Source: Eledone cirrhosa (lineage: Eukaryota). Taken from it: DNA of 64,000 bases. The notes below the pieces were generated by a model. That model saw only the letters and a program-made list of their open reading frames with translations. It was not told the origin of the DNA and ran no database searches. Every line of letters starts with the position of its first letter. Within the stretch, counting starts at the first letter, position 1. The position numbers and the translations under genes are program-made. The stretch lies in NCBI GenBank assembly GCA_964016885.1, contig OZ024740.1:369768001-369832000 (forward strand). The letters are read 5' to 3'. Positions 7,088 through 62,749 of this stretch are shown one piece after another.

Positions 7088-7348
7088 AGTATATACAATT
7101 TAAAGGGTATATACATATAAACTAGACAGAGTCATAGACATATATATATGTTTCTGGCAAAAATATGGTGTGGCTCAATGACGAATTAATTAAATATTAA
7201 AAATCAGAGCAATATATAAAAATATATATTGCTCTGATTATTAATTATTTAATTAATTCGTCATTGAGCCACACCGTGAATGGTTGCCAAAGTCATATAT
7301 ATATATCTATGACTCTGTCTAGTTTATATGTATATACCCTTTAAATTT

Positions 7349-17219: not shown

Positions 17220-20200
17220 CTATCCCCACAGACGACAATATATCTTCCAACAAAGGGTAGGAAGGGAGTTCTGGACAAATGTTGTGACCACATAGCAACT
17301 TTCCCATACCATGAACTACCGCAACCTAAACCCAAACCCAACACGAGTCGAAGGGAATGGGAGATTATCCATGAACTAAAAACCAATATTGACATTATAA
17401 TTAAGGAAGCGGACAAGGAAAGTACTGTCCTCATTATGGATGCTGAACGATAAAAAAATTCTATGTTCTCTCTCTTACAAGATACTAACTACTATGAAAG
17501 AGTAAAACCCTACCAGCAATCAAAAACGATGACCAGATTAAACACATTCAGGAAGAATTAACTAAAAAGGAATGCGATTATTTAACACATTTTTAATACA
17601 AAACCAGCAACCTTTACGGACTTCCGAAGGTCCACAAGTGTAAAACAATTAACGCTGCCTGTAAACAATCCACCTCAACCTGCGTACACACACAATACCC
17701 CCACAGACCTTAAATTAAGACCAATTGTAGCGGGCCCACAATGTGAAACACACAGACTAAGCAACTTTATAGACATACTACTAAAACCAATTCTGAAATA
17801 CATACCAAGCCTTGTAAGAGACGATCTGGACCTCTTAAACCACCTCCCCAAACATGTCAACAACGACACTATTATTGTGTCTTTCGATGTAGGGAATCTC
17901 TACACAACGATCCCACACGAGTACGGACTAGAAGCAATAGGAGTCTGGCTAGAGAAATATCCCAATGAGATAACTGACAGAATAGAAAAAAGCTTCATCA
18001 CCGACGGATTAAAATCTATTTTACAGAACAACTTTTTTTATTCCGATTGCAGTACTTACAAGCAAATATCGGGGACTGAGATGGGTACACTTATGCCAAC
18101 TTAGTCATGGCATACTTGGAAGTCCAGATAAATGAACACTCCAAATCAAAATACGAATTGAACTCCCACAAATATTTATCAGAGAATTGGAAACGCTACA
18201 TGGATGATTGTCTCATTCTTTGGTCTCACACACCAGACCAACTAAATGATTTCAAAAAATTAATTAACGGCATCAATAACCACATCCAGTTCACAGTGAA
18301 ATACAGCCAAGATCAACTCCCATTTCTGGACATCTTAATCATAAAAAAAGTCACAAATATTGAAACTGACATACACTACACACCAACAGATTCCAAACAA
18401 TACCTGATATTCACCTCCAACCATCCAAAGCGCACGAATCGGAACATCCCTTTTAACCTAGCAAGAAGAATGTGCATAATTGTCTCCAATTATGAAACCC
18501 GAAATAAAAGACTTCAAGAATTAAAGGAAATTCTACTCGAAAGACAGTACCCACCATTACTAATAAATAATGGAATAGAAAGGGCTAAAGCAATAGGCAT
18601 TGATGAATTACGAAAACAGGAATACATTCAAGGTACATCCAATATTCTATCATATATCTCAACACACAACCCAAGAAATGCGGAAGCTTACAACACTATT
18701 CACAAGAACATCCCACTATTGAAACAAGACCCAAGAATGAAAAAAGCCCTTGAAACACACAAAATAATAAAAAGCAAAAGACAACCAAAATCACTGAAAA
18801 CATTACTCACCAATGCCAAATTACCTACCACAAACCCACAACCAACTGTCAAAAATGTGGTCGCTCTAATTGTGGAACCTGCACTCACCTCATTGAAGGG
18901 AACACGTATACATTTTAATCAGGACAAAATTCTGCTGTAAATAATCTACTTTATGCCATTAAATGTAAAGGGTGCAATGATGATTGTATAGGACAAACTA
19001 AACTCACGCTCAGAAACAGAATGACAGTTCATCGCCAACAATTACGAGATCCTGCCACAAGACAGATACCACTCAGTGCACATCTAGACATATGCGCAAG
19101 TAATAAGACACCTACATTCCAAGTCTTCCCATTTTATCTTTGCGCTGACAATACAACAGAACAAATAAGAATAAATAAGGAAAATATGTTTATTCAAAAA
19201 TATAGACCAGCATTAAATATACTTTAATATACATTATGTCAAGAAAATAACATGCTAACCATCCAAACAGACACATACATACACACACACATAACACCTT
19301 CTATTTTAGAAAATAAAAACCAGAACTAAATAAACCTTAACATACGTTAATTCTCTAACACCTTAACATGCTAACAAAACACACACACATAACTCCCTCC
19401 CCCATTTCTACTAACGGATTCATTTTCCTACACACACACACACACACACATAAAACCCAAACACACAGACACACACCACTCCCTCCCCCATTTCAACTAA
19501 TAGAATCATCTACCTACACACACACACACGCACACACTCACACACACACACACACACACACACAAGAACACAAATAAACATATATATCTCTACTTTCTTG
19601 ATTTCAATAGAAAATCTGAATTTTGACACCCCAGCACACCAGCCATATTCACTGAACCAGAACAATTCTCCCCATCCCGTTTTTCTTGACCATTAATTTT
19701 TGTTTGGCACAAAATACCTTAAAAGGCTACAAAATAAATTCCCAAATACGGGCGCGAAATTTAATGCATTTGTTCACGTGACACTCATAATTTCATTTAT
19801 AACCAATCAAATTACATTTCAGCACATCAGTCATACTCTCTCCATCCCTTTTTCTTGACCATTATCTTTCTGAGTTCAAATCCCGCCGAGGTTAACTTTG
19901 CCTTTCATCCTTACGGCGTCGATAAAATAAAGTACCATTAATGCACTGGTGAATTGCTGGCCTTGTTCCAAACGTAGAAACAATTATCTTTTGTTTGGAA
20001 CAAAATTCTCTAAGTGGCTACAAAAAAATTCTAAAATACAGGCGCTAAATGTAATGTACCTGTTCGCGCGACAGAAATTTATAACGAATAAAATTACATT
20101 TATAAAAAAAAGAAGCCTGCGTGAGTCACTTTTTTTCAGCAAAAGGAAATTCAAACACAAACTAGCGCGAAAGCTGATGTGCTTATTCACGTGACTGCAT

Positions 20201-20610: not shown

Positions 20611-20844
20611 TAATATATATATATATATATAATCAACAACAAAGAACGCCTATAGCATATGCATATCTTTAATTGCTAACATTGTTTCATCCGCACTATA
20701 AGTGGGACTCATCAGAGCATAAAGGTTGATTACATATCACACAAGCAATAACAAATCCAAGACATTGAAGAAATAAAGAATAAAAAATATTGAGGAAGTA
20801 AAAATAAAAATAAACATTGAAAAATAAACATTGAAAAATAAACA

Positions 20845-21846
20845 TTGAAAAAAAACTCGCAGGCTGATTACTATAATGATGCCTTAGCTAGATCCGGCTT
20901 TAGGAACACATTGTATTATACCCAGGGAAATAATAGTCCTAATAGTAGCTCTACCAGTGTTGTTATAACACATAATATGTCCATTGGTAATAGAGGTGTC
21001 GCGAATGGGAGGGTTCTAAATGCCGGTGGAATGAACCAGCAGGGTACCATTAGTCTAAGCAATAGCAATGGTAGGCCTCGCAGCTCCCCGCATAAATTAG
21101 GTGAGCATAGTAACCGTAGAAATAATAATACTAATAATAATAATAGTGATGGAAATAAAAAGAATAAAAAGAATAGAAGAAGATTGAATACATACTTCAA
21201 CCCCCCTTTTAACTCTGAAGTGGCTATAAATATTCCTAGGGCCTTCTTCTCTGTGTTAGAAAGGAACTTCCCTCCTGGTAATAGGTACCACTCTATCCTC
21301 AATAAGAATGTTGTTAAACTTTCGTATTCTACAACCCAAAATCTGGCCTCTTATCTGGCCATTACTAATAATAGGAAAATAAAGGAAGGCCTGGACAACC
21401 TAAGCCTAGGGGAAAACACGGTAGTGGACAGAGGGGGCCGGAACACAAGTGGTGATCGTTCTGAGAATAGCATCACCAGAAATTGTAACTGTAGAAGGGC
21501 TTCAGGCTGCCCCCTGAATGGTTTCTGCCTTATTAGAAACATAGTTTATGCGTGTGATGTGGTAACTACGGCGTCCACTAAAACCTATATAGGATCAACC
21601 TCCACCCCCTTTAAGACCAGGTTTAACTCTCACCAGTGCACTTTTAGACACAATAAACTGAGGAACTCCACCTCCTTGGCAGCGTACGTCCACAATTTAA
21701 AAAATGCACGAACACATTACACACTTACTCGGCGGCAGGTTGCTAAATCCCATCCATATACTCCTCATAATAGAGTATGTAACCTATGCCTTGCCGAATC
21801 CCACTCTATTATATTTGCTAAATGCCCTCTACTAAACAGAAAGTGA
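20845..21846 (+). pseudogene. C-terminal PLE ORF: RT thumb remnant + GIY-YIG endonuclease
   Basis: CNCRRASGCPLNGFCL..IVY..KTYIGST..FKTRFNSH..CNLCLAE..LLNRK; the frame continues EIFSSCPH after an in-frame TGA. Confidence 0.85.
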
Positions 21847-23880
21847 GAAATATTTTCCTCTTGCCCCCACCGAATATTAAGCTCTTTCTTCTACTTTAAA
21901 CCTATTAGCTAGCACTTCCTTAATTCTCCAGTTGGGCTATCTTGTGTAACTGTCTCTTATTGTGTGTAACTGTTTCCTATTGTTTGTCTTCTATGTATAT
22001 GAGTCAGTGAGTGTATACGTATGCCTGTGGAAGAATATTGATCTGGATATTGGGGTGTACAGGTGAGTGGGTGTGTATGTTAATAAGCACCCCTGTTTGC
22101 CACAGCGGATGTAACCCATCCACGCTCGCCTACCCACCATTGGTGCATTGGTGGGTCTATCCCGACTTGTATCTTGCGGATCTGTACCTCTGTATGCGCA
22201 TGAGTTATGATGTAATGTATCTATGTAGAGCGTGTACTGTGATATAGGCTGCACAAATAGAAATCTAGTCTGTAAGTGTGGGCGGACCTGTGCCATCTCG
22301 CCGTAAGCAGTAGATACGTGGCACATGTACGTGTTGCCCTCCTATTCTGTGGTTTAAGATCTACAGGCTGACTTCTGGGAGCTCTTGCCCGGTGTTGTAG
22401 TCTTTCTAGCACGATCGGCCTTCCATATATTGACGGTCGTTGTTATTATCCCAAAAGTAACGTTTTGGCCCCGATAGCCCTCCGTAGTTACTAACGGTCT
22501 GTGTACACTTGAATCGGGCAATGGCACGTGCGGACACGATTATCTTCGTGGGAATTTAATTTGATTTATTTTACTGCATCTCCTCGTATGTATTTATTTT
22601 GAATGTATTATCCGTGGTGGTGGGTCTTGCCTAATGTGGTATTTCTGTGTTTAATATCAGCTTTGACCCGGGTGTCCTACGCTGTGTGTGTGTGCGTGTG
22701 TGTCTGTGTATACATTTATATGTGTATGGGTGTAGGTGGCTGTATATGTCTGTATATAAATATATATATATATGTATACCGTCTCTGCATATGCATGTGG
22801 TGTGTATATGTGCATATACGTGCAGAACATATTGGTGTGTATAATCTTGAGATGTCCCAATGCGGTGACTTCATGATATTGGCTCTTGAAGCTATTTTTT
22901 ATATATCTTTTGTATGCGCTGTTGAGTATGCATATTAACCCGCCTGACCCAGCTGTATTTGCTTGCTTTCGGCTAGCCCGACTGCACCTGTTTGCTTTCG
23001 GCCCACTTGTCTGCCTCTTGCTGCTGCACGTGAATTCTCCTACCTTCCTTCGATGTACCTCTGTTGACCATTGGACTCCTGCCCGGGTGTGAACCGGTTT
23101 GTGATTACCCCACCGCTCAACTGTGTGAATGCACACCCGTGACTTTCGAGTGAACTTTTGAGACTGCCCAACCTGGGACGTCTCCATTGCATTGCAATGG
23201 TCAAGTGATACTGATAACTGTGACACTTAGGGCCTTCGTGGGCCCCTGATATATTCAAGAAAAATATATATCTTATCTCAATTTACTTTATTTTATTTTA
23301 TTTTATTTCATTTCATTTTATTTTATTTTATTTATTTAATTTTATTTAATTTAATTTTATTTAATTATATCTTATATTATATTATTTTATTTTAGTTTAT
23401 TTTATTTTATTTTATTTTATTTTATCTTATTTTATTATTATATTATATTATATTTTATTTTATATAATTTTAATTTTAATTTTATTTTATTTTATTTTAT
23501 TTCATTCCTTACCCTGTAACACTATTATCTGTATATTTTATATGTATGTTTTTTATATTTTCTTATATATATTATATGTCTATTGTTTACCTATTTTTCA
23601 CCTATTTTTTATCTATTCTTACCTACTCCTATCTATCTTATCTATTCTTGTCTGTTCTCTTATCCATGTTTATGCTTGTATGTAACTATATGTTGACAGC
23701 ACCCCGCCCAACTGTGACTGATAGCACCCCTTATTTTTCAATTATTTTTCAATGTTTATTTTACAATGTTTATTTTTATTTTTACTTCCTCAATATTTTT
23801 TATCTTTTATTATTTTTTATTCTTTATTTCTTCAATGTCTTGGATTTGTTATTGCTTGTGTGATATGTAATCAACCTTTA

Positions 23881-23926
23881 TGCTCTGATGAGTCCCACTT
23901 ATAGTGCGGATGAAACAATGTTAGCA
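23881..23926 (+). ncRNA. Minimal type I hammerhead ribozyme (inverted copy at 20674-20719, minus strand)
   Basis: TGCT-CTGATGA-GTCCCACTTATAGTGCGGAT-GAAAC-AAT-GTT-AGCA: stem I TGCT/AGCA, intact core, GUU triplet. Confidence 0.8.
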
Positions 23927-24062
23927 AGTAAAGATATGCATATGCTATAGGCGTTCTTTGTTGTTGATTATATCACGGCTCTGTCCTCAGATATCGAGCT
24001 AACCTTATACTGCCTGTTGGATAAGTGGAGTGTTATACACCCCTGATCCTCTCCCTAATATA

Positions 24063-24237
<175 letters not shown>

Positions 24238-34855: not shown

Positions 34856-34957
34856 GTCAAAAATGAAACGAAATTTCATTTATCACTCTTAGTACGGCTG
34901 TTACTTAAATATAAGTATGTATACGTACATACATATACGTATACAGACGTTCTGTAG

Positions 34958-34962
<5 letters not shown>
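34855..34962 (-). mobile_element. Left piece of an older diverged copy of the 466-bp family (right piece 41765-41945)
   Basis: AAATGAAACGAAATTTCATTTATCACTCTTAGTA...CAGACGT aligns to the unit with mismatches, and collinearity resumes after the array. Confidence 0.75.
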
Positions 34963-34993
<31 letters not shown>

Positions 34994-35232
34994 GTAAGTA
35001 TGCATGTATACGTACATACATATATGTATACAGACGTACAGTAGCATGCACATATATATATATATATACATATATATATACATATGCATACAGGTACACA
35101 TACATGTATGCACGTATCAGTTTAGCGGCGCTAACGTCGCTTTGTTCGTTTGTAAACAAACTGAACAGCCTGAATTTATGCCATACGGTGTTAAGGCAAC
35201 CACGTCACCTTTTTGTTCAACACTGACACAGG

Positions 35233-35277
35233 AACGATGTACTAGTTTCAAGCTTGTTAGCTATCATCAGCACCGTT
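35233..35277 (-). ncRNA. Minimal type I hammerhead ribozyme, first of 11 minus-strand copies spaced 466 bp apart
   Basis: Reverse complement reads AACGGTG-CTGATGA-TAGCT-AACA-AGCTT-GAAA-CTAG-TA-CATCGTT. Confidence 0.85.
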
Positions 35278-35350
35278 TACCCATCTGCCAGATAGTTGAA
35301 CGTTCGAAAGTATATACTTTCCTTATGAAAATTAACGGCTGAGCAGCCTA

Positions 35351-35358
35351 ATTTGCAT
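35351..35358. promoter_or_regulatory. Octamer motif ATTTGCAT in every array unit (also 57639-57646)
   Basis: Exact octamer, conserved in the diverged relative. Function is inferred only. Confidence 0.35.
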
Positions 35359-38300
35359 ATTGAGTGAGTTAAATCGGTCAGGCATACCGAAAACGATAAA
35401 TTGAAACAAAATGAAAACGAAATTTCATTTCTCACTCTTAGTATGGCACTTACTTAAATGTAAGTATGCATGTATACGTACATACATATATGTATACAGA
35501 CGTACAGTAGCATGCACATATAAATATATATATACATATATATATACATATGCATACAGGTACACATACATATATGCACGTATCAGTTTAGCGGCGCTAA
35601 CGTCGCTTTGTTCGTTTGTAAACAAACTGAACAGCCTGAATTTATGCCATACGGTGTTAAGGCAACCACGTCACCTTTTTGTTCAACACTGACACAGGAA
35701 CGATGTACTAGTTTCAAGCTTGTTAGCTATCATCAGCACCGTTTACCCATCTGCCAGATAGTTGAACGTTCGAAAGTATATACTTTCCTTATGAAAATTA
35801 ACGGCTGAGCAGCCTAATTTGCATATTGAGTGAGTTAAATCGGTCAGGCATACCGAAAACGATAAATTGAAACAAAATGAAAACGAAATTTCATTTCTCA
35901 CTCTTAGTATGGCACTTACTTAAATGTAAGTATGCATGTATACGTACATACATATATGTATACAGACGTACAGTAGCATGCACATATATATATATATATA
36001 CATATATATATACATATGCATACAGGTACACATACATATATGCACGTATCAGTTTAGCGGCGCTAACGTCGCTTTGTTCGTTTGTAAACAAACTGAACAG
36101 CCTGAATTTATGCCATACGGTGTTAAGGCAACCACGTCACCTTTTTGTTCAACACTGACACAGGAACGATGTACTAGTTTCAAGCTTGTTAGCTATCATC
36201 AGCACCGTTTACCCATTGCCAGATAGTTGAACGTTCGAAAGTATATACTTTCCTTATGAAAATTAACGGCTGAGCAGCCTAATTTGCATATTGAGTGAGT
36301 TAAATCGGTCAGGCATACCGAAAACGATAAATTGAAACAAAATGAAAACGAAATTTCATTTCTCACTCTTAGTATGGCACTTACTTAAATGTAAGTATGC
36401 ATGTATACGTACATACATATATGTATACAGACGTACAGTAGCATGCACATATATATATATATATACATATATATATACATATGCATACAGGTACACATAC
36501 ATATATGCACGTATCAGTTTAGCGGCGCTAACGTCGCTTTGTTCGTTTGTAAACAAACTGAACAGCCTGAATTTATGCCATACGGTGTTAAGGCAACCAC
36601 GTCACCTTTTTGTTCAACACTGACACAGGAACGATGTACTAATTTCAAGCTTGTTAGCTATCATCAGCACCGTTTACCCATCTGCCAGATAGTTGAACGT
36701 TCGAAAGTATATACTTTCCTTATGAAAATTAACGGCTGAGCAGCCTAATTTGCATATTGAGTGAGTTAAATCGGTCAGGCATACCGAAAACGATAAATTG
36801 AAACAAAATGAAAACGAAATTTCATTTCTCACTCTTAGTATGGCACTTACTTAAATGTAAGTATGCATGTATACGTACATACATATATGTATACAGACGT
36901 ACATTAGCATGCACATATATATATATATATACATATATATATACATATGCATACAGGTACACATACATATATGCACGTATCAGTTTAGCGGCGCTAACGT
37001 CGCTTTGTTCGTTTGTAAACAAACTGAACAGCCTGAATTTATGCCATACGGTGTTAAGGCAACCACGTCACCTTTTTGTTCAACACTGACACAGGAACGA
37101 TGTACTAGTTTCAAGCTTGTTAGCTATCATCAGCACCGTTTACCCATCTGCCAGATAGTTGAACGTTCGAAAGTATATACTTTCCTTATGAAAATTAACG
37201 GCTGAGCAGCCTAATTTGCATATTGAGTGAGTTAAATCGGTCAGGCATACCGAAAACGATAAATTGAAACAAAATGAAAACGAAATTTCATTTCTCACTC
37301 TTAGTATGGCACTTACTTAAATGTAAGTATGCATGTATACGTACATACATATATGTATACAGACGTACAGTAGCATGCACATATATATATATATATACAT
37401 ATATATATACATATGCATACAGGTACACATACATATATGCACGTATCAGTTTAGCGGCGCTAACGTCGCTTTGTTCGTTTGTAAACAAACTGAACAGCCT
37501 GAATTTATGCCATACGGTGTTAAGGCAACCACGTCACCTTTTTGTTCAACACTGACACAGGAACGATGTACTAGTTTCAAGCTTGTTAGCTATCATCAGC
37601 ACCGTTTACCTATCTGCCAGATAGTTGAACGTTCGAAAGTATATACTTTCCTTATGAAAATTAACGGCTGAGCAGCCTAATTTGCATATTGAGTGAGTTA
37701 AATCGGTCAGGCATACCGAAAACGATAAATTGAAACAAAATGAAAACGAAATTTCATTTCTCACTCTTAGTATGGCACTTACTTAAATGTAAGTATGCAT
37801 GTATACGTACATACATATATGTATACAGACGTACAGTAGCATGCACATATATATATATATATACATATATATATACATATGCATACAGGTACACATACAT
37901 ATATGCACGTATCAGTTTAGCGGCGCTAACGTCGCTTTGTTCGTTTGTAAACAAACTGAACAGCCTGAATTTATGCCATACGGTGTTAAGGCAACCACGT
38001 CACCTTTTTGTTCAACACTGACACAGGAACGATGTACTAGTTTCAAGCTTGTTAGCTATCATCAGCACCGTTTACCCATCTGCCAGATAGTTGAACGTTC
38101 GAAAGTATATACTTTCCTTATGAAAATTAACGGCTGAGCAGCCTAATTTGCATATTGAGTGAGTTAAATCGGTCAGGCATACCGAAAACGATAAATTGAA
38201 ACAAAATGAAAACGAAATTTCATTTCTCACTCTTAGTATGGCACTTACTTAAATGTAAGTATGCATGTATACGTACATACATATATGTATACAGACGTAC

Positions 38301-40460
38301 AGTAGCATGCACATATATATATATATATACATATATATATACATATGCATACAGGTACACATACATATATGCACGTATCAGTTTAGCGGCGCTAACGTCG
38401 CTTTGTTCGTTTGTAAACAAACTGAACAGCCTGAATTTATGCCATACGGTGTTAAGGCAACCACGTCACCTTTTTGTTCAACACTGACACAGGAACGATG
38501 TACTAGTTTCAAGCTTGTTAGCTATCATCAGCACCGTTTACCCATCTGCCAGATAGTTGAACGTTCGAAAGTATATACTTTCCTTATGAAAATTAACGGC
38601 TGAGCAGCCTAATTTGCATATTGAGTGAGTTAAATCGGTCAGGCATACCGAAAACGATAAATTGAAACAAAATGAAAACGAAATTTCATTTCTCACTCTT
38701 AGTATGGCACTTACTTAAATGTAAGTATGCATGTATACGTACATACATATATGTATACAGACGTACAGTAGCATGCACATATATATATATATATACATAT
38801 ATATATACATATGCATACAGGTACACATACATATATGCACGTATCAGTTTAGCGGCGCTAACGTCGCTTTGTTCGTTTGTAAACAAACTGAACAGCCTGA
38901 ATTTATGCCATACGGTGTTAAGGCAACCACGTCACCTTTTTGTTCAACACTGACACAGGAACGATGTACTAGTTTCAAGCTTGTTAGCTATCATCAGCAC
39001 CGTTTACCCATCTGCCAGATAGTTGAACGTTCGAAAGTATATACTTTCCTTATGAAAATTAACGGCTGAGCAGCCTAATTTGCATATTGAGTGAGTTAAA
39101 TCGGTCAGGCATACCGAAAACGATAAATTGAAACAAAATGAAAACGAAATTTCATTTCTCACTCTTAGTATGGCACTTACTTAAATGTAAGTATGCATGT
39201 ATACGTACATACATATATGTATACAGACGTACAGTAGCATGCACATATATATATATATATACATATATATATACATATGCATACAGGTACACATACATAT
39301 ATGCACGTATCAGTTTAGCGGCGCTAACGTCGCTTTGTTCGTTTGTAAACAAACTGAACAGCCTGAATTTATGCCATACGGTGTTAAGGCAACCACGTCA
39401 CCTTTTTGTTCAACACTGACACAGGAACGATGTACTAGTTTCAAGCTTGTTAGCTATCATCAGCACCGTTTACCCATCTGCCAGATAGTTGAACGTTCGA
39501 AAGTATATACTTTCCTTATGAAAATTAACGGCTGAGCAGCCTAATTTGCATATTGAGTGAGTTAAATCGGTCAGGCATACCGAAAACGATAAATTGAAAC
39601 AAAATGAAAACGAAATTTCATTTCTCACTCTTAGTATGGCACTTACTTAAATGTAAGTATGCATGTATACGTACATACATATATGTATACAGACGTACAG
39701 TAGCATGCACATATATATATATATATACATATATATATACATATGCATACAGGTACACATACATATATGCACGTATCAGTTTAGCGGCGCTAACGTCGCT
39801 TTGTTCGTTTGTAAACAAACTGAACAGCCTGAATTTATGCCATACGGTGTTAAGGCAACCACGTCACCTTTTTGTTCAACACTGACACAGGAACGATGTA
39901 CTAGTTTCAAGCTTGTTAGCTATCATCAGCACCGTTTACCCATCTGCCAGATAGTTGAACGTTCGAAAGTATATACTTTCCTTATGAAAATTAACGGCTG
40001 AGCAGCCTAATTTGCATATTGAGTGAGTTAAATCGGTCAGGCATACCGAAAACGATAAATTGAAACAAAATGAAAACGAAATTTCATTTCTCACTCTTAG
40101 TATGGCACTTACTTAAATGTAAGTATGCATGTATACGTACATACATATATGTATACAGACGTACAGTAGCATGTGTACCTGTATGCATATGTATATATAT
40201 ATGTATATATATATATATATGTGCATGCTACTGTACGTCTGTATACATATATGTATGTACGTATACATGCATACTTACATTTAAGTAAGTGCCATACTAA
40301 GAGTGAGAAATGAAATTTCGTTTTCATTTTGTTTCAATTTATCGTTTTCGGTATGCCTGACCGATTTAACTCACTCAATATGCAAATTAGGCTGCTCAGC
40401 CGTTAATTTTCATAAGGAAAGTATATACTTTCGAACGTTCAACTATCTGGCAGATGGGTA

Positions 40461-40505
40461 AACGGTGCTGATGATAGCTAACAAGCTTGAAACTAGTACA
40501 TCGTT
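40461..40505 (+). ncRNA. Minimal type I hammerhead ribozyme (also 40927-40971 and 41393-41437)
   Basis: 7-bp stem I AACGGTG/CATCGTT, CTGATGA and GAAA cores, palindromic stem III ACTAGT, GUA triplet (predicted cut after 40498). Position 10.1-11.1 is U.U. Confidence 0.85.
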
Positions 40506-41734
40506 CCTGTGTCAGTGTTGAACAAAAAGGTGACGTGGTTGCCTTAACACCGTATGGCATAAATTCAGGCTGTTCAGTTTGTTTACAAACGAACAAAGCG
40601 ACGTTAGCGCCGCTAAACTGATACGTGCATATATGTATGTGTACCTGTATGCATATGTATATATATATGTATATATATATATATATGTGCATGCTACTGT
40701 ACGTCTGTATACATATATGTATGTACGTATACATGCATACTTACATTTAAGTAAGTGCCATACTAAGAGTGAGAAATGAAATTTCGTTTTCATTTTGTTT
40801 CAATTTATCGTTTTCGGTATGCCTGACCGATTTAACTCACTCAATATGCAAATTAGGCTGCTCAGCCGTTAATTTTCATAAGGAAAGTATATACTTTCGA
40901 ACGTTCAACTATCTGGCAGATGGGTAAACGGTGCTGATGATAGCTAACAAGCTTGAAACTAGTACATCGTTCCTGTGTCAGTGTTGAACAAAAAGGTGAC
41001 GTGGTTGCCTTAACACCGTATGGCATAAATTCAGGCTGTTCAGTTTGTTTACAAACGAACAAAGCGACGTTAGCGCCGCTAAACTGATACGTGCATATAT
41101 GTATGTGTACCTGTATGCATATGTATATATATATGTATATATATATATATATGTGCATGCTACTGTACGTCTGTATACATATATGTATGTACGTATACAT
41201 GCATACTTACATTTAAGTAAGTGCCATACTAAGAGTGAGAAATGAAATTTCGTTTTCATTTTGTTTCAATTTATCGTTTTCGGTATGCCTGACCGATTTA
41301 ACTCACTCAATATGCAAATTAGGCTGCTCAGCCGTTAATTTTCATAAGGAAAGTATATACTTTCGAACGTTCAACTATCTGGCAGATGGGTAAACGGTGC
41401 TGATGATAGCTAACAAGCTTGAAACTAGTACATCGTTCCTGTGTCAGTGTTGAACAAAAAGGTGACGTGGTTGCCTTAACACCGTATGGCATAAATTCAG
41501 GCTGTTCAGTTTGTTTACAAACGAACAAAGCGACGTTAGCGCCGCTAAACTGATACGTGCATATATGTATGTGTACCTGTATGCATATGTATATATATAT
41601 GTATATATATATATATATGTGCATGCTACTGTACGTCTGTATACATATATGTATGTACGTATACATGCATACTTACATTTAAGTAAGTGCCATACTAAGA
41701 GTGAGAAATGAAATTTCGTTTTCATTTTGTTTCA

Positions 41735-41769
<35 letters not shown>

Positions 41770-41948
41770 CATACATGCACACATATATATGTACGTATGG
41801 ATTCACCGAACATTTATTATAATGCTCGGTGTGTTTGTAAACAAACATCCCGAATTATGCCGTACAGTGTCTTACAACCATCGTTGCTCGTTTGTTCAAC
41901 ACTGACAAAGGAACGCTGTACTAGTTTCAAGCTTATTAGCTATCGTAT

Positions 41949-42434: not shown

Positions 42435-42476
<42 letters not shown>

Positions 42477-43089
42477 AGGATGAATATAAAATGAAAGTGC
42501 TTTTGTTAAAAAAGGAATTTATTAGGTATTGACATATGTTTCTGTAACAGACCGAATACCTATGTATCGCTGCTTGCGTAATCATATATTGTTAGCAAGT
42601 ATTCGATAGCAAATGTATAATCAGTTGTCACTTCTTCAGAGATTTTGGATAAACTGGATAAAATCAGAAAAATTGAAGTATTTATATTAGTAAAAGAGGA
42701 AGGAACAGAGGGGATAGTATATGACATGGTAAAATAATTTACTGCTAAACAAGTATATAATGGGTTTTTAATGAGAATACCATGAGTAAATCTAAATAAG
42801 AATTTTGGGAGTGCCAATTTTAATCTCTACTTGAGCAACTGGACAGTGGACAGGGCTGGTCATTTGGTGCAGTAGTATTAATTATAAAGTGTCAATTGGG
42901 GAAGGGGGAGATTTCGATTGCTACTAAATAACATCAATGCTAGTAGCCAGCTGGTATATGCATTAGGGAATTGAATCAAGAAATCAGAAATCTCATTTAT
43001 AGCAGTTTGTATTAAAAGGTAAATAATAGAAGAGTTGATAGAATTAAGACTAATAAAGAATGTTCATATCTATTTTGACAATCAAACGG

Positions 43090-43868
43090 GAGTATATCTG
43101 GTACAACCCGGTCTGTAACAACTCTATTAAAACCAATCTACCCTCAAAATTCTTTCGATTAGTTAGAAAACACTTTCCAACATCACATAAATATAATAAA
43201 ATCTTAAACCCTAACACTATTCGACTTTCATATTCAACCGCCCCTAATATTGAACAACATATAAAAAAGCTTAACGCAAAACGGTTGTATAAACGCCTTC
43301 CAACACATAACAATACACGTAAAACATTAGCTATAACATCACAAAACAACAAACAACATCCTGTCCTACATAAGCAACCTCATCAACCCATCCATGGCAA
43401 TACAACAACGCAAAATTATAATTGCAACTGTGTCCAACCAGGAATGTGTCCGTTGAACAATCAGTGTCTTGAACGCAACATCGTATACAAATGTACTATC
43501 GAATCGGATAGACAGAAGTGGTACTATGTGGGATCTACAGCCACCCCCTTCAAATCACGCCTTTATAGACATCGTTATTCGATAAAACATGAAAACCAGC
43601 GTTATGTAACAACACTCGCAGACAAGGCTTGGCAGCTGCGTGAAAATAACCAAAAATTTCACCTAAAATGGGATATAATAGCGGCTGCCCCCCCCCCCCC
43701 CCCCCCCCCCAATCCCATGGACAGGAATTGTGTAAATTATGTAATGTAGAATTATTTTGTATTATGAAATCCAAAAACATTTTATTAAATAACAGAATAG
43801 AGCGATCGTTATACTGTAACCATCGCTTAAAATCTACATTTTCATATTATAAATACTACCAGGATTGA
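43090..43868 (+). pseudogene. PLE GIY-YIG endonuclease C-terminal fragment, frameshifted at a poly-C run
   Basis: IWYNP..CNCVQPGMCPLNNQCL..IVYKC..YYVGST..FKSRLYRH, then CKLCNVE..LLNNR..CNH in another frame. Confidence 0.85.
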
Positions 43869-44335
43869 ACGCCTGTCTCTATCCCCGTTTGATTGTCAAA
43901 ATAGATATGAACATTCTTTATTAGTCTTAATTCTATCAACTCTTCTATTATTTACCTTTTAATACAAACTGCTATAGATAAAATGAGATTTCTGATTTCT
44001 TGATTCAATTCCCTAATGCATATACCAGCTGGCTACTAGTATTGATGTTATTTAGTAGCAATCGAAATCTCCCCCTTCCCCAATTGACACTTTATAATTA
44101 ATACTACTGCACCAAATGACCAGCCCTGTCCACTGTCCAGTTGGTCAAGTAGAGATTAAAATTGGCACTCCCAAAATTCTTATTTAGATTTACTCATGGT
44201 ATTCTCATTAAAAACCCATTATATACTTGTTTAGCAGTAAATTATTTTACCATCTGTCATATACTATCCCCTCTGTTCCTTCCTCTTTTACTAATATAAA
44301 TACTTCAATTTTTCTGATTTTATCCAGTTTATCCA

Positions 44336-44457
44336 AAATCTCTGAAGAAGTGACAACTGATTATACATTTGCTATCGAATACTTGCTAACAATATATGAT
44401 TACGCAAGCAGCGATACATAGGTATTCGGTCTGTTACAGAAACATATGTCAATACCT
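44336..44457 (+). ncRNA. Hammerhead-like motif with a ~90-nt extended stem II (inverted copy near 42525-42645)
   Basis: CTGAAGA; GTGACA/TGTTAC, ACTGA/TCGGT, TATCG/CGATA and CTTGC/GCAAG helices; GAAA-CATATG-TC; AATAAA downstream. Stem I pairs poorly. Confidence 0.55.
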
Positions 44458-44630
44458 AATAAATTCCTTTTTTAACAAAAGCACTTTCATTTTATATTCA
44501 TCCTTTCTACATTTCTCCGGAATATAATTTATACTCGTTGAGCAAACCGGCACGTACGCTGTTCACTCCGAATAGAAGGAGCAGCGTGAAATAATTATTT
44601 CACGCTGCTCCTTCTACCTGGATATATATA

Positions 44631-48250: not shown

Positions 48251-48305
48251 ACTGCCTGAAGAGGTCACAGCCAAAGATGGTTGTCACTGAAATATATATA
48301 GCAGT
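48251..48305 (+). ncRNA. Minimal type I hammerhead ribozyme
   Basis: ACTGC-CTGAAGA-GGTCACAGCC-AAAGAT-GGTTGTCACT-GAAA-TATATA-TA-GCAGT, immediately followed by AATAAA. Confidence 0.8.
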
Positions 48306-52237: not shown

Positions 52238-53297
52238 TCTATATATATAAAACTGTGGTTGTCTGTCTGTCTATCGATTTTTGGCACACATCTCCTCTTA
52301 GAATCTCTCACGGAATTGCACCGAAATTGCTATACTTGTACATTGAGCCCTAGCGAAGACATCGGAAAAAAAAATTTCAAATTGACCCACCCTATGTGAC
52401 GAAATCGAATATAATGTATCGATTTTTGAGCGTAAGTTATCAGTTATTTCCCTTTGTTCTGTTTACATTGAGCGTCTTACGTAAAAAATTACGCTGGCTT
52501 TAACAGTTGTCGAGCCAGCAAAATATTGACCTGCAAAATTCATCAGTTCGAACACTAAGCTTCCGTTTTGCTTCATTTCCATTTAAAAGCATTTTAAAAC
52601 AATATTTTTACTTGAAAACAAGTCTATTTAAAGACTACGTAAAACAAGCAAATATTTCGTCGTTAGGCGTGCAGACAGACAGTCGTGCAGACAGACAGTC
52701 GTGCAGAGAGGTGATATAGGCGTGCAGACAGACAGTCGTGCAGAGAGGTGATTTAGGCGTGCAGACAGACAGTCGTGCAGAGAGGTGATATAGGCGTGCA
52801 GACAGACAGTCGTGCAGAGAGGTGATATAGGCGTGCAGACAGACAGTCGTGCAGAGAGGTGATATAGGCGTGCAGACAGACAGTCGTGCAGAGAGGTGAT
52901 ATAGGCGTGCAGACAGACAGTCGTGCAGAGAGGTGATATAGGCGTGCAGACAGACAGTCGTGCAGAGAGGTGATATAGGCGTGCAGACAGACATAACTGA
53001 TAATTTGGTTACGCTAATGTTTTTCTCTGCGTTGCAGTGTTTACATTTTCGTTCTTTGTTAATAAATCACCAGTGCAGTTTCTATCCCCAGCATCCTCTT
53101 TTGTTATAACATTCGGGTTATCGTTATGTTTTCTTAACTTCATAAGGCATATTGTTGGTTGAGGGAATATTAATCAAAACACCACATGCAAATCTGCACA
53201 GTAGACACTACAGTTTTTAAGCCAAGAAAGAAACTTAACATTGTAACTTTAACACAGCTACTGAGCGACCCCGAGCAACGCCGGGCTTTACTGCTAG
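52238..53297 (+). mobile_element. Non-autonomous Helitron
   Basis: 5' TCTATATATATAAAA and 3' hairpin CCCCGAGCAACGCCGGG...CTAG, inserted between A and T. The 3' end matches the large Helitron. Confidence 0.88.
52664..52992 (+). repeat. 37-bp minisatellite inside the Helitron, about 8.5 units
   Basis: Unit TAGGCGTGCAGACAGACAGTCGTGCAGAGAGGTGATA. Confidence 0.95.
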
Positions 53298-56417: not shown

Positions 56418-57283
56418 TATATTGTATGCATGTATGTATGTGTCTATGTATGCATGTATGTATGTGTCTATGTCAAAGGGCAACGGAACTCTTAAGAGTC
56501 AATGGCCATCCAAGGTCACGGGGAGAGATGACACCTTAGCCCTTGTCAAGGTAGAATTCTAGGAGAAGGAAAACTCTGATATAACACCTGCAACTCTGAT
56601 GGTATCCAATGATGTTGACTTGTTCTTCTTTTTGGTAAATATCATCTTGGTTAAGGGACTGGCTTTGTGCAGTGCCTTTGCTCACTATAAAAGATTCACG
56701 CCACAGGCATTGCTTTATATCTGGAGATCTCTCTGCACTTGTCGTCACATGGTACCATGGGCCCAGCACTATGTGTCAATAATTGTCACAAGTGTAGTGT
56801 TTGTACCAGAGTTTTCAAGTTGCTGGCTGGACTAAAAAGTCACACTCGTTCAGCGCATCGGTAGGGGTTCTCCTACATGGATATAAAGTAGTGGCCGTAC
56901 TCGAAATCGAGTTGGCAGCCACCATATATATATAGTATTTTTGTTCTTATTTATTTGTTTATTTAGTTATTCCTGTTTCTAAACTACTTGCCATTGACTC
57001 GCACATATTTATACTTGCTTGTGCATGTGTATATATATATATATTTAAAGAATGAAGATTAACATGGTTGGCTGTATAATAAGGGCTTTATTTAAAGTGT
57101 TGACAATTGTTTCATTGATCATGTGGGTCTAGAGTTCGCTAATAGCTTGATGTTGTGTTATTCGATCTCCAATACATTATTTACCTCTGGTCAACACATC
57201 AGAGTACGTAGATGTGAAAATAATTCACTCGAGGCAAGACATATAGAAAGAAATAGCGTATAATTAAAACAATAATATCTTTA

Positions 57284-57805
57284 AACAATTAAGTTAAAAA
57301 TGTACATCTACATATGCATACTGAAATACTAGTGTGTATATGAATACACACACGTATACATTTGTAGGTGTAACAAGTCTTTCACTGGTTGCTTTACTGT
57401 GAGCAACTCAGCTATTCTGTATGTAAACACACAGACAAACCGGTTTTTAGAGTCATACTGGTTTTCGGGGGAACACCTTCCCTCTATTCTCCAGAAAGCC
57501 AGACAAGGAATATTGCACTAGTTTCGTTGTTGTTACAACTCATCAGCAATATTTACCTATCTACCGGCTCTTCTGGAGAATCGTAAAAGCACATATCGTT
57601 ATATGCTTTTTCTATGAAAATTAGTAGTGGGCAGACTAATTTGCATAGAGTGTGAGTACGCACCGGTTCAGCGGAGACGATAAAAACAAATAACGAAACG
57701 AAATTAAATTTCGTTTCGTTTGTAACTCACTTTTGTATGACTGACGCTTAAACAATTAAGTTAAAAATGTACATCTACATATGCATACTGAAATACTATA
57801 TATAT
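57284..57805 (-). mobile_element. 1.1-mer of a 467-bp hammerhead monomer, diverged relative of the 466-bp array
   Basis: 51-bp terminal direct repeat at 57281-57331 and 57748-57798; 9-bp TSD ATATCTTTA at 57275-57283 and 57806-57814; shared motifs in the same order as the array unit. Confidence 0.85.
57509..57553 (-). ncRNA. Minimal type I hammerhead, probably inactivated (GUG triplet)
   Basis: AATATTG-CTGATGA-GTTGT-AACA-ACAAC-GAAA-CTAG-TG-CAATATT. Confidence 0.8.
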
Positions 57806-57808
57806 ATA

Positions 57809-60800
57809 TCTTTATATATATAAAAGCGATGATGTGTGTGTGTCTGTCTACAACTTTGCATGCATAAGGCTTTCACAATTACCAACTGAATTTGACCAAA
57901 TTTTCTGTGCCCGTTCCACACGTCGCTAAGATTGTCACATCACAAACATTTTTCAAATGGACCCATGTTGAGCAATAAAAAATCGACATCAAAATTATAG
58001 GTAGAAAAATTGATGTAAGGGAGATAACAAATTTTATTTTGACAATCCTTATAAAAAAGGGAGTTAACCAACTTTTCAATATAAACATCACATTTATTTG
58101 AAGATAAATCACTACTATTATATTTTGTTTCTTGTTTATTCTTTATTGCACTTTCAAAGTTAAAAAAAAACACTTGTTGTTTTAACTTGTTTCACTATAT
58201 TAAGTGTTAATGTTCGCGTTGAGGGCATAATCTCGCAGCAGTATCGAATTGACGAGATTTTGATGATGGTTGGTTTATTTTTAGAACAATCGTTATGGGA
58301 GTTTCAATTCAAACCATTGGGACCTACAACATTTTCATTTTTAAAACTTTCATAATCAAAGCCATTTCGGTAAACCAGATTTGTTTATTACTTTCACTTC
58401 AAACCCAAAATGGGAAGAGATTCAGAAAATACTCTTTCCAGGTCAAAAAGCCACAGCCAGGCAGGATCTTATTGCCAGAGTTTTCCATCTTAAGTTAATT
58501 AAGCTCATGGAACTTATCAAAACAGATGGCCCAGTACAATTTGACATGCTTACAATTGAGTGGCAAAAACGAGGCTTGCCACATGTCCACGTTCTGATCT
58601 GGTTAAAGACAAAACTTAGATCAGATGAAATTGACAATGTCGTTTATGCTGAGTTTCCGGATCCTACAATCGACAGGGACCTTTACCAAAAAGTTAAAGC
58701 ACACATGGTGCATGGCCCATGTGGCCATGGATTTCACAACAACCTACCGTGTGTTAAGGACAAGTCTAGGTGCTCAAAGAAATTTCCGCCGACAGTTCCT
58801 TAAGGACACTCAGACTGGTCATGACGGATACCCACTATATCGCCGAAGAAGATCCGAACATGGTAGATTCACAGCAAGTGTTAGCAAACATGAGTTTGAC
58901 AACAGATGGGATATAATCCACTCCTTATAAAGATTGTTGATGCACACATAAACGTAGAATACTGTAATTCGATTAAATCTATAAAATACATTTGTCAGTA
59001 CATTAATAAAGGCTCTGATGCTGCTACATTTGATTACTTCGGGAAAAACAGCCGAGATTAAGTGGCCCAGTACCAAACTGGAAAATACATTAACTCTAAT
59101 GAAGCCTTCTGGCGGATTTTCAGATTTGTTATACATCAACGGCATCCTGCTGTTCAAAAACTTCAAGTGCACCTGGAGAACGGTCAGAGAGTATATTTTA
59201 CGAATGCATCAGCTGCTCAGTTAGCACAAGAACCAAAGGATACTACTCTTACCACTTTCTTTAAACTATGTCAAGAAGATCCATTTGCTAAAACCTTACT
59301 ATATCCACAAGCCCCATCTTACTAAACCTGGGACAAAAATGCATGGAAGCGAAGAAAAAAGGACAGTGTGTCGAAGGTTATCCAGGCATCAAGTTCAACG
59401 AGTGCTTGGGCAGAGTTTATACTGTGCCCCCAAACCAACACGAGTGCTTCCATTTTCGTATGCTACTGCAACGGTGGCGGATGTTGCTCTTTCACATTCA
59501 CCTGCCAGCCTAAGAAATGTATTTGCGGTTCTTTTGCACTCGTGCAACTTATCTGACCCTCTGTCCTTGTGGATGATATATAAGGATGAACTAACAGACG
59601 ACTACAGACACCAAGCACAATTGCTGCTTCCAGAAATAGAGGTCGGCTTTATTAATGAATTATACAACAGAGCTCTCATTGATATTGAGGACAAGTTAGC
59701 TCTGATTGGAGGAAAGGTTTTACGTGACTACTGTTTACCAGAAACTCATCGTACAGACTCAAACAAACTTCCCACAGATATCATACAGGAGATTTATTAT
59801 GACATCCATGGTCTCGGCCTCTACGTCACAAATAATGAGCCAAAACTTCTAGCTGATCAGCGACTGGCTTATACCACCATTACTGATTTGGTATTTCAAA
59901 GAGGAGGTGGCATATTTTTCCTCGATGCTCCAGGGGGGACAGGAAAAACTTTCGTTACTAAACTTCTTCTTGCAAAGGTTAGACAGAATAAGGACAGAGC
60001 AATAGCAGTTGTGTCCTCTGGAATCGCAGCAACTTTGCTCCCTGGTGGAAGGACGGCACATTCAGTTTTTAAATTGCCTCTTGATTTGGCAAAATTGGAA
60101 ACTCCTACTTGTCATATCACCAAAGACGCCGAAAGGGCTTATCTGCTGCGAAGGTGTCACCTTATTGTTTGGGATGAGTGCAGAATGGCGCACAAAGGTG
60201 CTCTTGAGGCACTAGACAGGTCTTTGCAAGACATACGGGATTGCAGTGGTGTTATGGGGGGTGTCACCCTTCTGCTATCAGGAGACTTCAGACATACTCT
60301 TCCTATAATACCGAAAGGAACAAGAACAGATGCGGTAAATGCATGTCTTACGTCTTGACCATTATGGCGACAAGTGACATCATTAAGAGTAACTACCAAC
60401 ATGCGTGCAAGGTTGCATGGGGACCCTCTGTCATCAACATTTTTTGGAGACATTCTTACAATAGGAGATGGTAACCTACCTCCGGATACAGATGGACACA
60501 GCAATTGATCACATCTGCAATGTAGTTGAAACTGTCGTTGATCTCAAGGCGAGTATATTCCCGAACTTGCGTGATAACTATACGAATCGTGATTGGCTAT
60601 GCGAAAGAGCCATTCTTGCACCCAAAAATATCACGGTTATCTGTATTAACGATCAGCTTCTTCAGCTTCTTCCTGGATGTCCACGGATATATAAATATAT
60701 TGATACTGTATGTGATTCACAGGATGCGGTCAATTATCCAGTTGAATTTCTAAATTCTTTAAATCCTCCTGGTTTACCTCCTAATACATTGGTTCTGAAA

Positions 60801-61882
60801 GAGGGAACATCAGTTAATTTGCTGAGAAATATCACTCTTCCAAATCTATGCAATGGTACACGCCTTGTGATTAAAAAAGTGTCTCCACTTAGTATTGATG
60901 CTACCTTTCTATCCGGGTGTGGAAAAGGCGAGGATGTGATAATAACAAAAATTAGCCTGACTACATCAGGCGTGGATACTCCCTTCTCCTTTCGCCGAAC
61001 CCAATTTCCCCATCGTGTTGCCTTTGCAATGTTCATAAACAAGTCGCAAGGTCAAACTCTGTCTGTCGCTGGAATTCACTTGGATGAACCTTGCTTTTCG
61101 CACGGACAATTCTACGTTGCCTGCTCACGAGTTGGCAGGCGAGATAATCTCTTTGCGTTTGTTCCAAAAGAAAAACAAAGAATATCATCTATCCTGAAGT
61201 ACTTTAGTGTTAACAAAAAAACTTATTACAGTTCTGCCTTGACTTCACCTTACTCATTACGAAACATACCAAGGAATATGTCATGCAGGATATTTTGGAT
61301 TATAAGTTTAAAATGTAACCATACACAGCAAAGGATGCTCTCAAAGAATATATTTTCTCTTATTCTACTCTCATTGTTTTTTTGTTTGTATACAACTCTG
61401 CTTTCATTACAACTTTTGTACTTTAGTAAAACTGCCTGTTCTTTTTACAGATTTGCAACGTGTATTGTCTTTAATCATTTTTATAACTACATCCTGTTCA
61501 GTGTTTTCCTTCATTATCAGCATAGTGGATTGGTAGTATCGGTAGAGGGTCGGACGCCATGCTTTGACGCAAAGAGTTACGGCCCTTCCCATTCTGAGTT
61601 CAAATCACGCCGAGGTTAACTTTGCCTTTCATCCTTACGGGGTCGATAAAATAAAGTACCAGTAATACACTGGGTAATTGCTGGCCTTGTGCCAAAAAGT
61701 AGAAACAATTATCAACATAGTTTTATGTGTACAAAGATTGCACTAAATATTCGTTTGCATTAATTATTGAAGACTTCTGCTTATTTTGACATGTTGGGAC
61801 ATATAATGTTCTTCTTTTACTTCCTAGCTGTATATTCTTAGCATAATTTCAAACCCCGAGCAACGCCGGGTAAATCTGCTAG
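57809..61882 (+). mobile_element. Helitron with decayed Rep/helicase
   Basis: 5' TCTTTATATATATAAAAG and 3' CCCCGAGCAACGCCGGG...CTAG followed by T. A SINE is nested at about 61527-61707 with an imperfect 14-bp TSD. Confidence 0.93.
58290..61210 (+). pseudogene. Helitron RepHel (HUH replication initiator + Pif1-family helicase), frameshifted
   Basis: FITFTSNPKW, EWQKRGLPHVH, MVHGPCG, DAPGGTGKT, IVWDEC, LLSGDF, NKSQGQTL and FSHGQFYVACSRV across several frames. Confidence 0.93.
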
Positions 61883-62749
61883 TCAATAATAAAATAGCGT
61901 ATAATCTAAACAATAACATCAATAATAATAGATGTATGGTAAATAGGTTGAGAAGTTACAGATGTAAAAAGTAAAAGTAAACTATAAGATAGGTTACATC
62001 AAAAATTAAGAAAAATGAGAGAATGAAAAATATAAAGGGATAAATAAATAAATAAGTGAGAGCTTGTAAGTACATAGTAGTAGTTTTTAAGTAAGTGTTC
62101 TTATAAGGATTCCCTGGTGGGAAACTAGATTCGAGATGTACATAGATACGTGTAGAGGGTCCGATAAAAGAGATAATAAATTAGAGATTAATTGCTGGAT
62201 GTATGTATGATATTTATGGGCTAGGGATGATGGGACATTTGATAAACGCTTGTTGTAAATGTTTTGCTGATTGTTCTATTTTAATGGGGTTGATGTTGTT
62301 TCAGTGAGAGAGGGTGAAAGAAATGTTCAGAGATTTATGATCCAGTGCCTAGTTGGGCGTTTGATAGCTAATAGCAGTGCGATGGTGTGTATTATGTATG
62401 TAAAATCTCTCTACACGTATCTATGTACATCTCGAATCTAGTTTCCCACCAACGAATCCTTATAAGAACACTTATTGAAAAACTACTACTATGTACTTAC
62501 AAGCTCTCATTTATTTATTGTTCTCTTTATATTATCTATTCTCTCATTTTCTTACTTTTTTATATAACCTATCTTATATTCTACTTTTACTTTTTACATC
62601 TATAACTTCTCTACCTATTTACCATACATGTATTATTATTGATGTTATTGTTTAGATTATACGCTATTTTATTATTGATGTTATTGTTTTAATTATACGA
62701 TATTTTTCTATATAAGTCTTGCCTCAAGTGATTTACCTTCACATCTACA

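Follow-up and report, generated by a model that had tools for sequence, protein, structure and literature searches.

A hammerhead retrozyme of Eledone cirrhosa with two fixed (TA)n ends, probably inserted by a Penelope-like element

The insertion locus

The stretch of DNA analysed here (the window) comprises 64,000 nucleotides of Eledone cirrhosa (assembly GCA_964016885.1, contig OZ024740.1, positions 369,768,001 to 369,832,000 of the forward strand), an animal whose 3.0 Gb genome is rich in TA microsatellites. At 57281-57798 it carries a short non-coding insert with a hammerhead ribozyme. We analyse this insert as a copy of a putative retrozyme, compare it with other insertions of its family and discuss how the protein of a Penelope-like element (PLE) may have inserted it.

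The insert contains one 467-bp unit and the beginning of the following one (Table 1). An exact 51-bp direct repeat, with copies at 57281-57331 and 57748-57798, is spaced by 467 bp. Both the repeat and the stems and loops of the ribozyme are as the original prediction described them, the hammerhead lying on the minus strand. The nearest other full unit differs from that at 57281-57747 in 5 positions. No open reading frame (ORF) of at least 120 amino acids overlaps the insert, and the GC content of the 2-kb bin containing it is 36%.

On its right, the insert adjoins a Helitron, which begins with TCTTTA, ends with CTAG at 61882 and represents an earlier insertion at A^T of a host repeat. The empty site was reconstructed from copies of both flanking repeats (20 loci each). 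This comparison of two repeat families places the first six Helitron bases on both sides of the retrozyme; therefore, the duplication is between 6 and 9 nt long, and the Helitron was the target. The 9-bp target site duplication (TSD) originally proposed is thus real for at least 6 nt. The 9-mer ATATCTTTA is found at 57275 and again at 57806, but its last 3 nt on the left are common to the element, and a 7-nt TA filler at the 5′ junction had gone unmentioned. The filler occurs neither in the unit nor in the reconstructed empty site. A chance TSD, made up of the Helitron start on the right and the host repeat on the left, is excluded because the host's own TC continues past the Helitron at 61883. 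The copy is atypical: a one-armed 1.1-mer with a readable TSD, whereas inverted two-armed inserts in (TA)n are the usual form. Its value lies mainly in the unusual non-microsatellite target, which makes the nick stagger of 6-9 nt readable.

Table 1. Features of the window discussed in the text
Feature	Position	Strand	Remark
Retrozyme insert	57281..57798	-	467-bp unit (57281-57747) and 51 nt of the following unit
Type I hammerhead, palindromic CTAG loop III	57509..57553	-	G at N17 (57516) is exclusive to this copy
Inverted octamer-like pair (ATGCAAAT)	57612..57648		conserved in both families; 0/12 pairs covary
69-nt tail, internal copy bounded by the U and T start sites	57680..57748	-	T site at 57680
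Target duplication, left copy	57275..57283	+	last 3 nt (TTA) common to the U start site of the element
TA filler, 7 nt (TATATAT)	57799..57805	+	5′ junction, between the 51-bp repeat and the right 9-mer
Target duplication, right copy	57806..57814	+	host ATA, then the first 6 nt of the Helitron
Helitron (TC...CTAG, Rep and PIF1 remnants)	57809..61882	+	its TA-rich 5′ end is the retrozyme target
Host repeat, interrupted by the Helitron at A^T	57041..57277	+	continues at 61883
466-bp family-A array, two inverted arms	34991..41740		U end left, T end right

Fixed ends and their pairing

Copies of the element are joined to (TA)n at two fixed sites, which we call U (untailed end) and T (tailed end). 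With 57281 as position 1, U lies at position 2-7 and T at position 400, the latter being equivalent to U plus a 69-nt tail. Inside this tail, a hairpin (57692-57720) ends 12 nt before T. Exact junctions with (TA)n number 2,085 for T and 375 for U in the genome, while reversed controls yield 0. Free permutation of the copies is not supported, since the outer ends are fixed. This copy is a 5′-truncated single arm with the fixed U end on its left.

The pairing of the ends was counted in 101 insertions. Of these, the unit search contributed 22, the first 41 T places on C1 gave 40, and the first 46 U places gave 39. Beforehand, L013 was merged with L005 and L071 with L035, the duplicate L060 and a second copy of L102 were dropped, and overlapping views of one insertion (L007, L008, L016, L018, L023, L028 and L030) were removed. 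The second L102 copy remains within the 75 junctions and 65 arm pairs considered below. Inverted arms ending in one T and one U (T+U) are present in 76 insertions; 2 are U+U, 0 are T+T, 20 have a single fixed end and 3 are unresolved. Consequently, 76 of the 78 insertions with two fixed ends are T+U. Sorted by anchor, the far end is U in 29 and T in 0 of the T-anchored cases, and T in 31 and U in 2 of the U-anchored ones (Fisher p 2e-15). Far ends outside the selecting pattern lie in TA runs of at least 6 nt (23/24 and 27/29). Among the 100 T places listed, the sole inward-facing pair less than 20 kb apart consists of two separate insertions (L043).

In these inverted inserts, the tail that separates the two fixed start sites stands at one end, as expected of a non-autonomous element mobilised by a PLE. 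What was known as a tail that is often at one end becomes a near-strict rule, with 0 T+T in 78; it predicts that each strand uses one start site and that both sites lie on a single RNA. The class of element is known; in the open-access literature we found no paper that tallies how the ends pair or describes this tail signature for a retrozyme.

Arms, junctions and template

The inner ends of the arms are spread across the unit. An accumulation of cDNA ends at the ribozyme cut site was considered and rejected, as 12 of 150 ends lie near it when 12.8 are expected. Most arms cross this site (49/65 T arms, 50/65 U arms); together with the lack of excess ends there, this means that the cut linear monomer is not the template. 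Target-primed reverse transcription of a template longer than the cut monomer, as originally proposed, is supported. T and U arms are alike in length (medians 520 and 466, p 0.24).

Of 64 scored junctions between arms, 52 are gapless; among these, 32 share at least 2 nt and 17 at least 4 nt, where we estimate chance sharing at about 20% and about 3% and where the count is somewhat raised by the choice of the best match among many references. Both arms end inside the tail hairpin in 6 of 75 junctions, which could reflect two cDNAs of the same polarity annealing at the palindrome. Snap-back self-copying was rejected as the origin of the inverted arms, since it would yield identical ends and the inserts with hairpin junctions are still T+U.

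In 58 inserts, the two arms of one insert differ on average at 0.9 recurrent sites, whereas a typical other arm differs at about 20, and only 3% of other arms match as closely as an insert's own second arm. Both arms thus come from one RNA or one parent locus. Furthermore, the arrays L046, L047, L053, L058 and L063 are internally uniform and each has a haplotype of its own; a variant private to L063 occupies 14/14 covering segments across its two arms. Such uniform arrays require a monomer step, which a circle could provide.

The hammerhead ribozyme

The ribozyme comprises a stem I of AATATTG/CAATATT, a stem II with its loop (GTTGT-AACA-ACAAC) and the triplet GUG. At the gathering score, Rfam has no match anywhere in the window; below it, HH9 matches 57509-57553 (E 7.7e-8, 37 bits vs a cutoff of 52). 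Hammerhead cleavage triplets follow the NUH rule. GUG breaks this rule, and the ribozyme of this copy is therefore likely inactive. Position 17 is U in 67, C in 22 and G in 0 of the 89 other insertions covering it. The change from U17 to G is thus private to a copy which is probably dead. The triplet of the family is GUU or GUC, and the GUA which had been suggested for restoration is that of the array family.

Compensatory changes had been taken as a sign of selection on the fold. In 13 selected representatives, two-sided changes do affect 3 of 7 pairs in stem I and 3 of 5 in stem II, and the covariation score of both stems is 0.25, compared with at most 0.10 in slid controls. However, the changes mainly reflect one split between two families, so that the covariation amounts to modest evidence. 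The predicted fold of the circle is stable (z -9.1 vs 60 shuffles).

The inverted octamer-like pair seems to be kept as sequence, given that none of its pairs covary, and it is possibly a promoter element. It recalls the snRNA-type (small nuclear RNA) promoter of newt satellite 2, although no confirming paper was found.

Family and relatives

The unit search returned at least 202 matches, with full units 98-99% identical, at the 40 places that were scored out of 653 candidates. Subfamilies of the 467-bp element stand at about 98, 93 and 86%. A hammerhead-core pattern common to this family and to the array family has 38,717 exact matches in the genome. As predicted, the similarity to the 466-bp array unit (about 61%) is significant outside the ribozyme, with z scores of 7.4 to its left and 19.7 to its right (300 dinucleotide shuffles per side). 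In contrast, the proposed selection on unit length is not supported, as core spacings in related hammerheads include 422-433 and 484-502 bp.

Each unit of this short tandem repeat carries a type I hammerhead. The element is non-coding, without long terminal repeats (LTRs), below 50% in GC, and present both as dispersed copies and as multimers. Its TSD at 57275-57814 exceeds 4 bp, a length which is unmeasurable in (TA)n targets. At the sequence level the element thus corresponds to a non-LTR retrozyme, with cleavage and circular RNA as predicted properties.

The 466-bp array itself lies within the TA tract of an older relative (34860-34990 and 41738-41944, 75-84% alike), a case of retrozymes nesting within the TA tracts of one another. 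An older family-A-like array (L109:1602-4490) alternates units of about 412 and about 454 bp in an A-B-A-B order, and core spacings of 424/422 and 484-502 suggest further heterodimeric arrays. The genome is rich in hammerhead elements. Several other type I families with a 6-nt palindromic loop III (TATATA, TATGTA or TGCGCA), often as inverted pairs, are found at 48256 of the window and at L006, L036, L065, L086, L096, L100 and others.

A candidate enzymatic partner

Between the repeats of the retrozyme there is no ORF with reverse transcriptase (RT) and GIY-YIG domains, as would be present in an autonomous endonuclease-bearing (EN+) PLE. A candidate source of such a protein is a Neptune-type PLE. 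The window holds a frameshifted RT fragment of this type at 17586-18940, whose protein sequence has 22,711 candidates in the genome, many of them intact open frames of 775 aa. The protein combines PF00078 (just below its cutoff) with a C-terminal PF01541, i.e. RT and GIY-YIG. A CX4CxxC motif read in the translation fits the CX2-5CxxC described before GIY-YIG in Neptune (PMC8557442). The assignment to Neptune uses domains and this cysteine motif in comparison with that description. Named eukaryotic relatives of the protein come from bivalve molluscs (46-50% identity). No solved structure related to the Neptune ORF was found, and Pfam named none of the 5 PLE-like and 1 LINE-like (long interspersed nuclear element) fragments of the window.

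The 4,688-bp Neptune unit shows the geometry of the retrozyme. It ends at two sites 66 nt apart, which are joined to (TA)n at 7,169 and 1,071 exact junctions. In 32 regions we count 15 T+U, 1 U+U (apparently a local duplicate) and 0 T+T, the rest being one-armed or unclear; two apparent T+T pairs (L193, L194) turned out to be separate insertions. A hairpin whose end lies 12-13 nt ahead of T is common to the Neptune element and both retrozyme families. The retrozyme behaves like a non-autonomous PLE passenger.

One Neptune copy (L181:6908-6947) carries a minimal hammerhead 77 nt upstream of the U site; its core is the U3-A8 variant and its loop III is CCGG. The window also contains PLE remnants with GIY-YIG-like C-termini and inverted arms at 20627-24065 and 42469-44512, each untailed on the left, where it meets (TA)n, and tailed on the right; the former carries hammerheads at 20715(-) and 23885(+).

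Proposed mechanism

We consider it likely that a non-coding hammerhead retrozyme with two fixed (TA)n ends was inserted here by the RT/GIY-YIG protein of a PLE, probably of the Neptune type, from a circular or uncleaved multimeric RNA. The hammerhead strand of arrays would be transcribed, adjacent ribozymes would cut as dimers via their palindromic loop III, and the released monomers would circularise. Acting probably as a dimer, the PLE protein would introduce nicks into the two strands of a TA-rich target, and the tail hairpin would be its binding site on the RNA. One 3′ end of the target would prime at T and the other at U, 69 nt upstream, through 2-5 nt of TA microhomology. Both cDNAs would extend upstream past the ribozyme site, often for several units, and would then be joined to each other by microhomology or at a palindrome, leading to an inverted T+U insert. 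In the copy of the window, only the U-primed cDNA (518 nt) would have been captured; a short stretch of added TA bases would have linked its end to the opposite strand, and the nick in that strand, at a distance of 6-9 nt, would account for the duplication. In keeping with this mechanism, another PLE uses two RT start sites on either side of the tail in vitro and extends both strands (PMC11167929). Enzyme, circle and dimer are deduced from these features; circularity, cleavage and expression are predictions.

A stronger version, for which our confidence is somewhat less than even, would make PLE integration an obligatorily asymmetric double priming, in which one RT dimer on one RNA assigns T and U to opposite target strands. 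The retrozyme RNA would be a monomeric circle around which both subunits roll before the cDNAs are sewn together; the tail would be a spacer between the subunits, and arrays would be born at full size.

Evidence against the proposal and alternative explanations

Several observations weigh against this proposal. In vitro, the start site is the same for top and bottom strands (PMC11167929). Among the 76 T+U calls, 9 depend on second arms of 5-24 exact nt. Private variant columns comprise 237 confined to a single unit, 23 present in all copies and 19 partial ones, and 14 private variants occur in both arms vs 202 in one. Haplotypes are mixed within the arrays L071/L035, L080, L077 and L005, for which a single monomer circle cannot be the source. 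The predominance of single-unit private variants and the mixed arrays argue that multimeric templates or later local turnover also occur. As for the partner, no autonomous PLE with retrozyme-like pseudo-LTR (pLTR) sequence was found, other PLE families having been outside a systematic search. The comparison of retrozyme and Neptune, covering the first 60 matches for 30 loci of one family, gave just AT-rich low-complexity matches, with 1.5-kb flanks that mostly end before the tail. Neptune ribozymes differ from that of the retrozyme in core and loop III, and (TA)n ends are shared by other PLE families of this genome, whose tails measure about 38 and about 94 nt. Two fusions, L048 (604-4340, T+U) and L212 (560-1227, T+T), place a Neptune arm and a retrozyme arm between TA runs and may reflect co-integration, yet they could be explained equally well by deletion between neighbours. 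Since pLTR homology was not found and other PLE families share the targeting, geometry alone assigns the partner: a PLE is well supported, this Neptune family only moderately so.

The mixed arrays lead to a rival template. The same enzyme and start sites might use solely a linear, uncleaved multi-unit transcript, with circles uninvolved; this would suit the mixed or roughly periodic haplotype order of several arrays, the arms of L066 and L013/L005, which begin with the same unit type before the U arm switches, and the finding that unprocessed RNA is the main substrate in vitro (PMC11167929). Linear copying alone, however, cannot spread a new variant to all units, whereas 12-unit arrays are uniform and the private variant of L063 fills both arms; a monomer step is required somewhere in the lineage. 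An exclusively linear template is in our opinion rather unlikely, and both kinds of template may hold. Growth by unequal crossover of the satellite type from short PLE-made inserts (Li et al. 2026), which would render template length irrelevant, seems improbable. It could explain the irregular higher-order patterns of L080 and of the 31-unit L071/L035 array, as well as uniform arrays as recent local expansions. On the other side, short dispersed inserts already exceed the cut monomer (17/65 T and 16/65 U arms cross the site twice), the 51-nt redundancy of the copy in the window has a truncated end with filler, and T/U ends are intact around multi-unit arms.

Two further explanations concern the element that moved. 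The copies might be leftover pLTRs of an ordinary coding PLE, truncated during insertion: PLEs likewise have fixed ends, a tail, inverted arms and a preference for TA targets (PMC8557442), and many Neptune inserts are short pLTR-only pieces. The original prediction had named such copies, with fixed ends and attached to a coding PLE, as the case that would speak against it. The fixed ends were indeed found; the attachment was not, as 0/101 insertions flank a PLE ORF as a direct pLTR and L048 alone abuts one, and head-to-tail units lack an intervening ORF. We judge this origin highly improbable. A LINE, by twin priming of the L1 type, or the adjacent Helitron as the agent has a next to negligible probability, even though inverted 5′ arms and microhomology joins also occur in L1 and the copy adjoins a Helitron end. 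There is no poly(A) end, and both outer ends are fixed and homologous, whereas in L1 inversions the second primer lands at a variable internal site. The first Helitron bases are duplicated around the insert, and the retrozyme is found at 0/17 of the other Helitron starts displayed.

Comparison with known systems

Like the metazoan non-LTR retrozymes of coral, mussel, axolotl and newt (satellite 2) described by Cervera and de la Peña (2020, PMC7229834), the element consists of tandem units that are non-coding and low in GC, every one of them carrying a single type I hammerhead. It also shares with them copies ranging from dispersed monomers to long multimers, a TSD longer than 4 bp when present, and a stable predicted circle. 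Its unit of 467 nt lies slightly above the 150-450 bp of that study and within the 51-972 bp of Li, Clavereau and Pollet (2026, bioRxiv 10.64898/2026.07.22.740005). The passages of PMC7229834 considered here propose reverse transcription of a circle into tandem cDNA with a PLE as partner; they describe no fixed tailed and untailed ends, no inverted two-arm inserts and no (TA)n targeting. The circular RNA of the present family is predicted.

In Li et al. (2026), retrozymes co-occur with Neptune and Poseidon PLEs, as they do here, and mobilisation in trans is proposed. Those authors argue from how the elements are distributed in Xenopus and from their pLTR homology, and prefer satellite growth at the locus; our evidence, in contrast, is junction geometry, and pLTR homology was not found. 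Compared with EN+ Neptune and Poseidon PLEs (PMC8557442, PMC3846280, PMC11167929), the retrozyme has no ORF and a tail of 61-69 nt instead of 30-40. Primer microhomology is seen at both of its start sites; for PAc, by contrast, initiation in vitro needs no homology (PMC11167929). The one-end tail rule is counted here and nearly strict, unlike in the descriptions of EN+ PLEs.

Circle-templated tandem cDNA, PLE partners, the one-end tail and two RT start sites have thus already been proposed (bioRxiv 10.64898/2026.07.22.740005, PMC11167929, PMC7229834, PMC8557442, PMC3846280, PMC4209133). How retrozymes insert and how the inverted one-tailed structures of PLEs originate are both stated as open in the consulted parts of this literature. 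A young family with thousands of junctions provides direct genomic evidence which suggests that a retrozyme uses PLE start sites. The small natural substrate, a 467-nt RNA with a TA target, and the candidate intact ORFs would suit in vitro study.

Lastly, the window contains a 37-bp minisatellite at 52684-52993, with 8.4 copies that are 99% identical.

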